From a virus (taxonomy: Duplodnaviria > Caudoviricetes): a stretch of DNA of 64,000 bases. The position numbers were made by a program, and so were the translations under genes. This document shows positions 4,396-25,560 of this stretch, one piece after another; position 1 is the stretch's first letter, and every line of letters starts with the position of its first letter. The stretch covers positions 32,001 through 96,000 of the IMG/VR virus record IMGVR_UViG_3300028805_002025; one strand, given 5' to 3'. Below the pieces are notes generated by a model. It worked only from the letters and a program-made list of their open reading frames with translations, made no database searches and was not told the origin of the DNA.

Positions 4396-5523
4396 ATGGA
4401 AAAGATTACAGTTGAATGCATTAAAAAACTAGTTGGTAATAAGTATGATGTCATTTCATATAATGGAAGTAAAAAACCAGTTATATTATCTTGCCCCATT
4501 CACAGAGAATTTAAACTTAGGTTAGACCACATTAAAGAACACTTAAATGGAGACTTGTGCCCATACTGTATAAAAGAAAAAGAAGTCCACGAAAAGTTTC
4601 TTGAATTTGTGCGCAAGGGAAATGATACGCATAATGGGAAATATGTTTATCACGAAGAATGCTTCACCAATATGTCCACCAAAACAATAATAACCTGTCC
4701 GATACATGGAGACTTTGAACAAATTGCGAATAATCACGTCTGGGCTAAACAAGGATGCCCAAAATGCGCTAATGAACGTAAATTAGGGAAATACAAGTAT
4801 ACTAGAGAAAAGATTATTGAAATGTGTAAAAAAACTCATGGCGACAAATATATCTATGACGATATTGTGTTCCAAGGGATGAAGAAAAAAATACTCAACA
4901 TAAAATGTCCTAAACATGGGTATTTTGACCAAATTGCATATGACCATATAAAAGGATTTGGATGTGAACAATGCAAATTTGAAAATCAAACTATGGCAAA
5001 GGACGAATTTATTTCAAGGGCAACTGAGCTACATAATGGATTTTATAAGTATAATTCTGAAAATATGATATATGTTAACAACAATATTAAAGTTCCAATA
5101 ATCTGCCCAATTCACGGTGAATTCTGGCAAAGACCAGCATATCACTTAATGGGCGGTGGGTGTCCACATTGTCAAAGCTCAAAGCTAGAGTCAGAACTAA
5201 TGGACTTCTTTAAAGATAACGGCATCAACTTCATACATAAGTTCCATACAGACTGGCTTGGTAAACAGGAAATAGATTTATATCTGCCCAATTACAATGT
5301 CGGTATAGAATGCCAAGGGTTGCAGCACTTTGAAGAAGTAAAACAGTTTAAGGGTAAAGATGGACTTAAAGAAAGGCTAGAAAGGGACAGACGGAAGTTA
5401 ATATTATGTGGTGAAAATAATCTTAAACTACTATACTATAGTAATTTAGGGATTGAATATCCTTATCAAGTATTTGAGGATAAAGAAGAATTATTAAAAG
5501 AAATAAGAGGGACTAATGGTTAA
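4396..5523 (+). CDS. Zn-ribbon-repeat (DUF723-like) putative homing endonuclease with C-terminal PD-(D/E)xK domain
   Basis: Four CPxHG.F.Q...H..G.GCPxC modules, then DLYLP.YNVGIECQG.QH; AT-rich; opposite strand to neighbours. Confidence 0.8.
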   Translation: MEKITVECIKKLVGNKYDVISYNGSKKPVILSCPIHREFKLRLDHIKEHLNGDLCPYCIKEKEVHEKFLEFVRKGNDTHNGKYVYHEECFTNMSTKTIITCPIHGDFEQIANNHVWAKQGCPKCANERKLGKYKYTREKIIEMCKKTHGDKYIYDDIVFQGMKKKILNIKCPKHGYFDQIAYDHIKGFGCEQCKFENQTMAKDEFISRATELHNGFYKYNSENMIYVNNNIKVPIICPIHGEFWQRPAYHLMGGGCPHCQSSKLESELMDFFKDNGINFIHKFHTDWLGKQEIDLYLPNYNVGIECQGLQHFEEVKQFKGKDGLKERLERDRRKLILCGENNLKLLYYSNLGIEYPYQVFEDKEELLKEIRGTNG

Positions 5524-11825: not shown

Positions 11826-12902
11826 TTACTTAAAATTGTCCTTTTCACAAAGTTCTCCTAAAAGCTTTTTGTCGTTGTCGTCTAATTTCTTAGGCATTAC
11901 GAGTTTCACAACTCCAATCATATTACCCCTGGTATCTGAATTGAAAAGTGGCATACCATAGCCCTTGAATCTGAGCTGAGTACCATCTTCAGTACCCTGT
12001 GGTATCTTTGCCGTTATCGTCTTACCGTCTATGGTTTCAATTGTTGTCTCACCTCCAAGAATACCCTTCAGCACAGGTATATCAATAGTAAAATACAGGT
12101 CATCACCATTTCTTTCAAACTTCTCGTCTGGCTTCTGTACAACCCTAACAAGAAGGCTTCCTGGTGTACCATTTCCGTGAGGTGGGAAATTACCCAATCC
12201 TACAAACTGGAATATCTGTCCGTCAGCAGCACCTTTATTGATTTTAATTTCAACCTCTGTAGATGCCTGTACAACGCCATGACCGTTACACTTCTTACAT
12301 GGGTTCTCAATGACATAGCCCTTTCCACCACACTGAGGACAGGTGCTTGTCATTCTCATGTTGAATCCACCAAATCCACCAGACTGGAACACCGTACCAG
12401 TACCACCGCATGACTTACAGGTTCTCTTGCGACTATTGGATGTTAAGCCACTTCCACCACATTCGTCACACAGCTCAAAACGGTTGTATTTAATCTTCTT
12501 GGTAACACCATTGAACAACTCTTCGAGAGTAAGTGGGAAAGTAATCTGTATGTTAGTACCCACTACCTGCCTTGGTTTTCTTTCCTCACCAAAGTCGAAA
12601 TCACCAAAGCCACCGAAACCGCCAAAGTGTTTCATTATTTCATCGATGTTCATGCCACCGAAATCTGGACCACCGCTAGCATAGAAATCAAAGTTGGATG
12701 CTGGGTTGTCGTATTGCTTACGTTTCTCGTCATCACCAAGTACCTCATAGGCTTCTGCAACCTCCTTAAACTTTTCCTCGGCTTTCTTATCGCCCTGGTT
12801 ACGGTCTGGATGATACTTGATACTGAGCTTTCTGAAAGCTTTCTTGATATCGTCCTTTGATGCGTCCTTGGATACCCCAAGAATCTTATAGTAATCTTTC
12901 AT
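11826..12902 (-). CDS. dnaJ: Class A J-domain co-chaperone DnaJ
   Basis: [13 protein letters not shown]-rich linker, four CxxCxGxG motifs. Confidence 0.97.
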
Positions 12903-24264: not shown

Positions 24265-24289
24265 ATAGAAACGTTTTCTATATAAATAG

Positions 24290-24327
24290 TTGGGACAGTG
24301 GGATTCGAACCCACAATGACAGCTCCA
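24290..24327 (-). pseudogene. 3' half of a split tRNA-Gln
   Basis: TGGA-GCTGT-CATT-GTGGG TTCGAAT CCCAC-TGTCCCA-A: anticodon remnant, T arm and acceptor 3' strand. Confidence 0.8.
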
Positions 24328-25194
24328 TTAGTGCCTTTTTAAATATTCTGGATTTCCGTTATTAAATTTCCATTTTATTTTTTCATTAAAAATCTCTCTT
24401 ACATAATTTCTCATTTCAACGGAATAAGTTGGTAAACTATATTTTTCACACCATTTCACAACGGCTTTATCACTAACACCATATTTTCTCCCAACGCCAG
24501 TAAAAGAACCAATTTTTCTAAAATCATTCAATAGCTGTTCTTTTGAAATTATTTTATTAGATTTTGGCTGCTTATTAACTATTTTCATTTTTTTCAATTT
24601 ACGTCCACAATAGTTATCTGTTAAAGTGTGACAATTAGGGCATAATAATTGTAAATTTTCAAGCCTATTATCAGTTCTATCACCATTAATATGATGTAGC
24701 TGTAATGGGATAGGTTTGCCATACCATTCTGATAAGCCACATTCTGGATTTTCGCACTTATGTTCTTTTATTCCTTCATTTAACAACCTTTCTCTTAATC
24801 TTGGTATAGAAATTGTTGAACCTTTAACTAGATACTCTTCTATTGAAATCTTTTTTTTAATACAACCTGGTTTATATGGTTCATATTCATTAAAATGTGA
24901 TATATCAATTTTATTTTCTTCTAAAATTTTCCTTATTTGTTTATAATATTCATTTGTTCCTTTTTTACCTAATATATGTAGTATTTGGTTAATATTGGTA
25001 CATTTTTTAGCAAGTTCGCATACCATATCTACATATTTTTGGTGCGATGATTTTTTTTCATCGTATTCATCAAGATTAATCTTATTGCAGTAGCAAGCGT
25101 TTGATTTGGTAATCAAAAGTTCTTTAGCTATTTCTCCAAAGCTTTTACCAGCTTTTCTTAATTTCTGTACTTGTACTATTATTTCTCTATCCAT
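24328..25194 (-). CDS. HNH homing endonuclease with flanking HTH-like domains
   Basis: CENPEC...LQLHHINGDRTDNRLENLQLLCPNCH; AT-rich; start set at ATG after ATATTTAT. Confidence 0.9.
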   Translation of the reverse strand: MDREIIVQVQKLRKAGKSFGEIAKELLITKSNACYCNKINLDEYDEKKSSHQKYVDMVCELAKKCTNINQILHILGKKGTNEYYKQIRKILEENKIDISHFNEYEPYKPGCIKKKISIEEYLVKGSTISIPRLRERLLNEGIKEHKCENPECGLSEWYGKPIPLQLHHINGDRTDNRLENLQLLCPNCHTLTDNYCGRKLKKMKIVNKQPKSNKIISKEQLLNDFRKIGSFTGVGRKYGVSDKAVVKWCEKYSLPTYSVEMRNYVREIFNEKIKWKFNNGNPEYLKRH

Positions 25195-25262
25195 AGTATA
25201 ATCGTTTTTATATAAATATCTAAATCCTCCAAAAAAAATACGATTATACCACATTTATTTTG

Positions 25263-25334
25263 TAGGGAACAATTGAGTTGAACAATTACCTGTCGAGTCA
25301 AAGTCGCTTGTGCAGACCGCTACACCAGTTCCCC
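25263..25334 (-). tRNA. Atypical tRNA-Gln(TTG), copy A
   Basis: Acceptor GGGGAAC/GTTCCCT, D stem GTGT/GCAC, loop CT-TTG-AC, T arm AATTG TTCAACT CAATT; only 3 Watson-Crick pairs in anticodon stem. Confidence 0.7.
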
Positions 25335-25337
25335 ATA

Positions 25338-25363
25338 TTGTGTTACCATTACACCATGTCCCA
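25338..25363 (-). pseudogene. 5' half of the split tRNA-Gln
   Basis: TGGGACA-TG-GTGTAATGGTAACAC-A; TGGGACA is exactly complementary to TGTCCCA of the 3' half. Confidence 0.75.
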
Positions 25364-25368
25364 GTATG

Positions 25369-25440
25369 TAGGGGTGGAATGAGTCGAACATTCACCTGTT
25401 GAGTCAAAGTCACTTGTGCAGACCGCTACACCACACCCCC
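25369..25440 (-). tRNA. Atypical tRNA-Gln(TTG), copy B
   Basis: Acceptor GGGGGTG/CACCCCT, same D arm, loop CT-TTG-AC, T arm GAATG TTCGACT CATTC. Confidence 0.72.
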
Positions 25441-25560
25441 AGATACGAAAATAGGGTATTCGGATTCCTGTTACAGACCGTAATACCCTGGTGTGCCTTA
25501 CGTTCAAGGCACTAAGCAATAAGTCATTTGACAATGAAGTCAAATACCAATCGACAAAAG

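Follow-up and report, generated by a model that had tools for sequence, protein, structure and literature searches.

The DNA analysed here, referred to throughout as the window, is a stretch of 64,000 nt that spans bases 32001-96000 in a viral record of 241,681 bases; the completeness of this record is put at about 75%. Sheep, goat and cattle gut runs contain DNA of the rumen jumbo phage or of close kin. On the minus strand of the window, a tRNA-Gln gene and an HNH endonuclease gene lie between the two parts of another, broken tRNA-Gln gene. The features are listed below in their 5' to 3' order on that strand.

25368..25440, minus strand: copy A, an intact atypical (B-type) tRNA-Gln(UUG), called by ARAGORN and by Rfam (tRNA, 51.3 bits).
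4 nt, minus strand: spacer between copy A and the 5' half.
25338..25363, minus strand: 5' half of a broken canonical tRNA-Gln(UUG), 26 nt comprising the acceptor 5' strand, the D arm and the next two bases.
3 letters, minus strand: TAT between the 5' half and copy B.
25262..25334, minus strand: copy B, the passenger tRNA-Gln(UUG), B-type, 73 nt, called by ARAGORN and by Rfam (45.2 bits).
67 nt, minus strand: spacer between copy B and the HNH ORF.
25193..25252, minus strand: inverted repeat between copy B and the HNH gene, seen by RNA fold and conserved in relatives.
24328..25194, minus strand: HNH endonuclease gene P0001 (288 aa), with its ATG at 25194 and its TAA at 24330-24328; Pfam HNH_3, PHROG 10822.
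24290..24327, minus strand: 3' half of the broken tRNA-Gln(UUG), 38 nt from U35 to the discriminator A.

The 3' half begins with U35-A38 of the old anticodon loop, with no gap between U35 and the HNH stop codon TAA, and continues with the 3' strand of the anticodon stem, the variable loop CATT, the T arm, the 3' strand of the acceptor and the discriminator A. Its T stem is intact at 5 bp, with the loop TTCGAAT, and the 7-mer of the 5' half pairs perfectly with the acceptor 3' strand at 24297-24291. Neither half is called as a tRNA by ARAGORN or Rfam, while both programs call copies A and B. Over the whole 241,681-base record ARAGORN found 43 tRNAs, and Gln(UUG) is represented only by copies A and B; another Gln(UUG) gene could nevertheless exist, because the record is incomplete.

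Exact-pattern scans of viral contigs located an intact 72-nt tRNA-Gln(UUG) in L002 (2956-3027, minus strand) and L003 (10695-10766). These two unrelated contigs are not syntenic with the window and, at 14% and 23% completeness, are small fragments; as far as such partial records can tell, they contain no HNH relative. The 5' half of the window is identical to this allele at 26/26 positions, and identity extends to the opening 9 nt of the 3' half, TGGAGCTGT. Relative to the intact allele, the window lacks exactly 7 nt, CAGTTTT, which are tRNA positions 28-34. With these 7 nt restored between the halves, ARAGORN calls a tRNA-Gln(UUG); with the halves joined directly, it finds no tRNA. The same genome encodes a canonical Gln(CUG) (genome c[22816,22887]) whose D arm and variable loop CATT agree with those of the halves, and the broken gene was therefore the UUG partner of Gln(CUG). 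An earlier note on this DNA had placed the halves at the positions given above, with a perfect 7-bp acceptor match and about 7 nt of the anticodon arm missing; the coordinates are correct, the halves match the intact allele, the acceptor match is confirmed, and the loss can now be stated as exactly 7 nt. The note had also described the insert as an intact atypical tRNA-Gln(UUG) plus an HNH gene whose TAA abuts the anticodon remnant, without an evident group I intron core. ARAGORN, Rfam and Pfam agree with the former, and on the latter point there is no Rfam match and the insert is filled by the tRNA, the 67 nt and the ORF.

The HNH ORF, which is the sole ORF of the insert, scores 28.9 bits against Pfam HNH_3 (cut-off 24.8) and matches PHROG 10822 at E 1e-32. 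Residues H167, H168, N180 and H189 are present together with C147, C152, C185 and C188, all of them invariant across 27 homologues; homologues in total number more than 1,400. The gene is not in frame with any protein gene, and its own ATG is conserved in all relatives (MDR or MDK start). Values of dN/dS range from 0.05 to 0.25 overall and from 0.06 to 0.20 for the window gene against relatives; synonymous sites are saturated in each comparison of the window with a relative. Judged from sequence, the enzyme is under purifying selection. A sequence search of the PDB with the HNH profile returned nothing useful. Hints of a helix-turn-helix at both ends of the HNH protein remained below threshold. 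That the enzyme cuts the intact tRNA-Gln allele is our inference, and cleavage has not been shown.

The inverted repeat upstream of the gene folds as RNA into a 13-bp stem (-14.7 kcal/mol, z -2.8). Its 3' arm covers the A and the U of the HNH start codon, its 5' arm holds TGGTATAAT, which resembles an extended -10 element, and its loop holds TATTTATATAAAAA. Both arms are nearly invariant in 9 relatives, among which no compensatory change was found, so that the hairpin has no support from covariation and its arms are simply conserved. We infer for the repeat a role as promoter and a role in masking translation, which would give low or timed expression. Such expression is common for genes of the homing-endonuclease type. 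The string TATTTATATA was considered as a general promoter and rejected, as only 3 copies of it are present in the window. One metatranscriptome has contigs on the HNH gene and copy A, which is no proof of transcription.

The same split, syntenic with the window, is found in independent assemblies from other samples, namely L006, L007, L012/L013 and L182. In every one of them a 5' half is followed by a B-type tRNA, the conserved spacer, the HNH gene and finally a 3' half. The HNH protein is 82% identical to that of the window in L006 and L007 and 58% identical in L012/L013. The neighbouring proteins of the syntenic relatives are 70-86% identical, and the recurrence of the split in such independent assemblies excludes an artefact of assembly. 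The contigs available from four rumen runs are fragmentary; none of them joins the halves, reads through an empty site or spans the cassette. In one rumen run, contigs (X6 records 26 and 29) end at the inner edges of both halves. A search of INPHARED with the 3.1-kb region gave short tRNA or HNH matches only and no relative.

The B-type tRNA and HNH pair also occurs in other surroundings. In L008 it lies between tRNA-Lys and tRNA-Ser with no halves left, in L009-L011 it lies between tRNA-Leu(CAA) and tRNA-Tyr with a decayed 5' half preceding the B-type gene, and in L016 it adjoins another 3'-half allele. The HNH gene of L014 follows tRNA-Lys; there the B-type gene is internally deleted, and the unit adjoins the 3' half of another Gln allele. 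In L006 the T stem of the 3' half is broken. Altogether, the pair adjoins 3' halves of at least 5 different Gln alleles. The tRNA arrays of related phages are highly rearranged between relatives, and one relative has an interrupted tRNA-Leu with an ORF-free insert of about 480 nt, a probable intron (L177 1211-1770).

A filled and an empty site are known for a sister cassette, for which L134 on the one hand and L026/L113 on the other come from near-identical genomes. At the empty site of L134, tRNA-Ser(GCT) is separated by a 63-nt spacer from an intact canonical tRNA-Gln(UUG). The filled site of L026/L113 has the same tRNA-Ser and spacer, followed by a B-type tRNA-Gln, the HNH gene, 10 nt, the tRNA-Gln sequence from U35 onwards and identical downstream DNA; in L026 the B-type gene stands exactly in place of the canonical 5' half. 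Over the 124 C-terminal residues that could be aligned, the HNH proteins of L022 and L026 are 92% identical, and L022 keeps its 5' half up to U34. Taken together, these sites locate the insertion within the anticodon, between nt 34 and 35. Since sister cassettes retain nt 1-34 and 35-76, this is also the original insertion point, and the 7-nt loss in the window is inferred to be a secondary, later erosion of the left junction, which is retained up to nt 29 in L012 and L006. There is also a reciprocal case: the tRNA-Glu(UUC) that is intact in L026 is split in the anticodon loop in L134 by a different HNH gene of the same family. This split tRNA-Glu has no passenger tRNA, and compensation by a spare tRNA is thus not universal in the HNH family. 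For the window's own allele, a search through LPD23 homologues found no syntenic cassette-free relative with an intact copy. It returned L177, which has neither the cassette nor the canonical gene; L179, in which a different HNH gene lies 14 nt upstream of an intact Gln(UUG); and L182, the further filled site mentioned above. Presence/absence polymorphism at the window's own locus is indicated only indirectly, by the intact allele of the non-syntenic L002/L003 and by the occurrence of the cassette in other contexts.

The insertion point bears on whether tRNA-Gln could still be made from the halves, either because the insert is a group I or other self-splicing intron or because its RNA is processed through the embedded tRNA and religated. 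Group I introns of bacterial tRNA genes occupy the position used by this family, between nt 34 and 35; relatives of the phage do contain an interrupted tRNA-Leu, as in L177; and the halves are unusually well conserved. However, the 7 missing nt of the anticodon arm include U34, so that a direct join is not a tRNA, and a 73-nt tRNA, 67 nt and an ORF reaching to its last base take up the whole insert, without space for a ribozyme core. The halves also erode in relatives, with a broken T stem in L006, a decayed 5' half in L009 and none left in L008. The lack of any Rfam intron match at E values up to 1 adds only a weak negative, because Rfam also missed the probable intron of L177, which served as control. 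We leave next to no room for this explanation.

The tRNA of the cassette differs from the gene that it interrupts. A covariance model of the B-type (R1) scores 87.4 bits on copy A and 89.3 bits on copy B, and these are the only matches above 80 bits in the window's genome. We scanned three other phage genomes (G004, G006 and G007; 348 kb, 166 kb and 148 kb) with the same model, and matches above 80 bits were found only at the HNH-adjacent tRNA; the B-type tRNA is therefore cassette-borne. Copy B is 97-100% identical in L006, L007 and L009 and is always 65-74 nt upstream of the HNH start. Copy A lies just upstream of the broken gene without an HNH gene of its own and has G1.U72 as well as A27.C43 and G28.A42 mismatches; in relatives its slot is occupied by a long-arm tRNA(UUG) of 86-87 nt. 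B-type and canonical Gln genes have the D-arm core GGTGTAA in common, and a search of viral contigs with the exact pattern of the B-type D arm gave no match. Between copy B and the target allele, 10/17 positions of the anticodon arm differ, which would fit immunity of copy B to a sequence-specific enzyme. Neither the immunity of copies A and B to the HNH enzyme nor the functional compensation of the broken gene by copy B has been shown; both are inferences.

A broader view of the family came from 160 further HNH-relative loci collected by alignment-based searches of viral contigs (a single-protein locus search gave one weak locus). A same-strand tRNA lies within 150 nt upstream of the HNH gene in 73 of 136 non-redundant loci, Gln(UUG) being the commonest with 23. 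We also counted orphan T arms, that is, T arms belonging to no called tRNA, and used the remainder of the same loci as background. In the 58 nt around the HNH stop, 16 were observed against 2.6 expected, a 6-fold higher density (P 1.7e-8), and most of them end in CCA-A or CCCA-A, as Gln genes of this kind typically do. Loci whose HNH protein is 34-47% identical repeat the order 5' half, tRNA, HNH, 3' half. The passenger tRNA is preceded by a free, complementary 5' half in L029-31/L116/L117 and L115 (HNH 39% identical), in L065 (46%) and in L044 (34%), as well as in L069 (47%), where the passenger is a tRNA-Phe; the identity of the split tRNA of L069 is unresolved, and this locus was left out of the same-anticodon cases. 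The possibility that the L065 stop codon derives from the anticodon was rejected, as the ORF ends 6 nt earlier. In several phages with distant relatives of the gene, an open HNH ORF requires that TAG be translated as Gln, and the internal TAGs lie on columns where the family has Gln.

This recurrence also has to be weighed against a passive origin, in which the locus is a scar of recombination among similar tRNA genes in a dense array and the HNH gene is an uninvolved neighbour. The rearranged state of the arrays would suit such an origin, the GGTGTAA core that B-type and canonical Gln genes have in common could mediate the exchange, and the B-type gene of L026 lies exactly where the canonical 5' half was. 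On the other hand, a scar would not be expected to give the same order and breakpoint in different target alleles and with HNH proteins down to 34% identity, nor the enrichment of orphan 3' halves right after the HNH stop. The HNH enzyme is also kept by selection, and the B-type tRNA was seen only beside HNH genes in the three other genomes. We consider a passive scar improbable.

The histories of cassette and flanks are uncoupled. L006 and L007 have HNH genes that are 94% identical in DNA, and yet their 5' halves differ at 3/25 aligned positions and their 3' halves have different T-stem alleles with compensatory changes. Similarly, the HNH DNA of L014 and L016 is 93% identical, and their 3' halves differ in acceptor and T-stem, each still pairing. 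The opposite is seen between the window and L012, where 4-fold degenerate sites of the HNH gene are 38% identical and the 5' halves are identical at 24/25 positions (P about 1e-9). Among the window, L006 and L012 in general, 5' halves are 24/24 to 24/25 identical at 38-53% identity of the HNH 4-fold sites (P 2e-7 to 1e-9), and between the window and L007/L012 the pairing of the T arm is kept through compensatory changes. The halves are thus far better conserved than the HNH 4-fold sites and are not simple neutral debris. The simplest account of both the conservation and the discordant histories is repeated entry of the cassette into a conserved functional target, the outer half parts coming from the recipient. 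Uncoupled histories of this kind are compatible with super-Mendelian inheritance in mixed infection, although the phage is uncultured and such inheritance has not been shown.

The conservation of the 5' half and the compensatory changes in the T arm could also mean that the halves themselves are functional RNAs or DNA signals, for instance a tRNA-half decoy, a processing or termination signal for copy B and the HNH mRNA, or a split tRNA annealed in trans. For a split tRNA of the Nanoarchaeum type, however, positions 28-34 are absent and no complementary sequence was found after the 5' half or before the 3' half that could bring the two together; the anticodon itself is missing. Furthermore, the halves are lost or eroded in L006, L008, L009, L014 and L016 while the cassette is kept. 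Their conservation is explained equally well by recent, repeated insertion into a conserved functional gene, because flanks and cassettes have uncoupled histories. Selection on the halves as homology arms, or a role at the RNA level, is not excluded, but as an explanation of the locus we regard functional halves as quite improbable.

We are therefore fairly confident in the reading of the locus as a two-gene mobile cassette, consisting of an atypical tRNA-Gln(UUG) and a free-standing HNH gene, that interrupts the canonical tRNA-Gln(UUG) gene of the phage in its anticodon arm and has inactivated it. As the design recurs in many other phages, the cassette has the look of a gene-drive-like element that substitutes for the gene it destroys. 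In the mechanism that we propose, the enzyme would cut the DNA of the canonical tRNA-Gln gene of cassette-free genomes in or near the anticodon stem-loop during co-infection. The donor cassette would then be copied by recombinational repair, with the tRNA halves and the neighbouring DNA serving as homology, and the insertion would destroy the recognition site. The passenger tRNA, with its 10/17 differences in the anticodon arm, may thereby escape cutting and would maintain decoding of CAA and CAG, so that the cost to the phage would be small. Expression of the enzyme is probably kept low or timed by the conserved inverted repeat that overlaps the start codon, and in the window the left junction would have eroded later with the loss of 7 nt.

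The earlier note had inferred a homing element that destroys its target tRNA, and this is supported by the architecture, by the recurrence in different contexts and alleles and by the empty and filled sites of the sister cassette. It had proposed looking for an intact tRNA-Gln without the HNH gene in related phages; such genes exist in L002/L003 and, for the sister cassette, at the syntenic empty site of L134. Its term isoacceptor for the passenger is loose, since copy B and the broken gene do not differ in their anticodon.

The closest described system is SegB of phages T4/T6, a free-standing GIY-YIG homing endonuclease in a tRNA gene cluster, which recognises a motif of the T-psi-C stem-loop, cuts near the 3' ends of many tRNA genes and drives preferential inheritance of itself and of neighbouring tRNA genes in co-infection; genes of this kind are statistically associated with tRNAs (PMC2330249; PMC13096335). 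The window cassette is likewise a free-standing nuclease gene inside a phage tRNA array. SegB, however, is a GIY-YIG enzyme encoded between intact tRNA genes and there is no description of it interrupting a tRNA gene at the anticodon or forming a fixed pair with a same-anticodon tRNA, whereas the enzyme of the window is of the HNH type and lies inside a split tRNA. HNH genes embedded in tRNA clusters have been reported in mycobacteriophages and other viruses and were proposed to spread tRNA genes (PMC6409571; PMC5966550). These reports describe co-occurrence only, with no split target, insertion point or paired replacement tRNA (PMC6409571; PMC5966550). Our full-text searches of the literature found no case of an endonuclease gene that carries a same-anticodon tRNA and interrupts a tRNA gene at its anticodon.

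Several other arrangements resemble the cassette in part. Group I introns with homing endonucleases occupy anticodon loops of bacterial tRNAs, as in cyanobacterial tRNA-Leu(UAA) and in tRNA-fMet with I-Ssp6803I. They also are endonuclease-bearing inserts in the anticodon loop of a highly conserved target, where they disrupt the recognition site; but their ribozyme restores the tRNA, while the insert of the window has no ribozyme, leaves the gene dead and carries a second, complete tRNA. Free-standing endonuclease genes are known to split protein genes, as mobA does between genes 39 and 60 of T4 and mobE within nrdA of Aeromonas phage Aeh1 (for mobE, PMC2790892). In these cases, as here, an intron-less endonuclease gene inside a host gene leaves two pieces, which in mobA and mobE still give a working protein, whereas the pieces in the window cannot make a tRNA and a substitute is supplied. 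Islands and prophages of the integrase type insert in tRNA genes, carry a copy of the tRNA 3' end and use a tyrosine or serine recombinase. They resemble the cassette as mobile elements that target a tRNA gene and carry sequence keeping the tRNA function; but they restore the same gene by a short 3' duplication, while a whole different tRNA gene is supplied in the window. No integrase or recombinase gene and no direct repeats were found in the window insert, and the halves are complementary parts of one gene.

Two ways are known in which homing endonucleases avoid harm to their host: they reside in self-splicing introns or inteins, or they are placed between genes. The cassette described here looks like a third way, in which the element enters an essential-type gene at its middle, inactivates this target and brings a complete substitute. 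Sequences are available for the enzyme, for the target allele and for the putatively immune allele. If the enzyme targets the anticodon region of tRNA-Gln, it would provide a simple mechanism by which tRNA genes turn over in phage arrays and non-canonical tRNAs spread, and it would account for nested tRNAs and 'tRNA fragments' that are overlooked or misinterpreted by gene finders. It would also define a nuclease family whose tRNA-gene specificities can be read from the flanking halves. A more far-reaching possibility, which is speculative and may well prove wrong, is that the HNH gene and its tRNA form a co-evolving gene drive on phage tRNA repertoires, removing the canonical tRNA-Gln gene of competing or co-infecting phages and installing an unusual tRNA-Gln. 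In the installed tRNA the 1-72 pair is weak and the T loop odd, and in the present case the anticodon stem is mismatched; such a tRNA may withstand tRNA-cutting defences of the host, and the conserved halves would be kept as homology arms for the next round of homing. Should this be true, cassettes of this kind would be among the main forces behind the large and odd tRNA arrays that jumbo phages have.

The intact tRNA-Gln(UUG) lying just upstream of the broken gene's 5' half (copy A, window 25368-25440, minus strand) has a B-type tRNA body with the acceptor stem GGGGGTG / CACCCCT. This stem is similar to that of the long-arm tRNA(UUG) occupying the same slot in relatives (the comparison was made with L006 3739-3825), and copy A may be a chimera that arose from gene conversion. 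A little upstream of copy A (window 25455-25500, minus strand) lies a conserved element of the form GGGTATTACGGTCTG ... GAATCCGAATACCC with a run of T after it. It is retained in the syntenic relatives L006, L007 and L012, in which the DNA around it is only 55-72% identical, and it resembles an RNA element or a hairpin of the terminator type.

The long-arm tRNAs are 86-90 nt in length and combine a long variable arm (a Leu/Ser/Tyr-like shape) with a UUG or CUG Gln anticodon and U1-A72. They are putative Gln tRNAs, by anticodon. In L018 and L097, two loci with relatives of the cassette HNH, the tRNA immediately upstream of the HNH gene is of this type.

Long-arm tRNAs with Gln anticodons.
L006 3739-3825
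L012 2735-2820
L177 (relative without the cassette) 2075-2163
L018 1344-1432
L097 1353-1442
Own genome c[22616,22703], outside the window

Other members of the HNH family were also seen at tRNA genes. Outside the window, the own genome has a second paralogue on the minus strand at about 11908-12400. It is 47% identical over the catalytic core, and its stop codon extends into the 5' end of a tRNA-Ser(GCT) gene, c[11825,11910], which is intact. The member in L134 (about 1390-2200) splits tRNA-Glu(UUC) in the anticodon loop without a spare tRNA; compared to the intact allele of the near-identical genome L026 (935-1011), the split allele has compensatory differences in the anticodon stem.

The 10-mer TATTTATATA has only 3 copies in 64 kb, including those at window 24279-24288 and 25209-25218 (minus strand). 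Two copies stand 14-15 nt upstream of start codons, those of the HNH gene and of the LPD23 gene that comes after the 3' half of the broken tRNA-Gln. Presence of LPD23 varies among relatives, with L006 and L007 lacking it.

In L177 (1211-1770) the anticodon loop of a tRNA-Leu gene is interrupted by about 480 nt having no ORF. This insert is probably a group I intron; Rfam 15 gave no detection in it at E up to 0.01. A matching motif occurs at 2700-2787 of L014, where the HNH has another tRNA context. L004, from a 360-kb phage, carries an odd 97-nt tRNA-like gene (4576-4672, minus strand), called Ile GAU by ARAGORN; the final 25 nt of this gene match the window's 3' half without a difference.

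The HNH ORF of L113, a near-identical genome to L026, has TAA at one of the columns where the HNH family conserves Gln, and may be broken. The HNH ORFs of L022, L026, L032 and L115 have internal TAG at such columns, and because of this position TAG is probably read as Gln in these gut phages.
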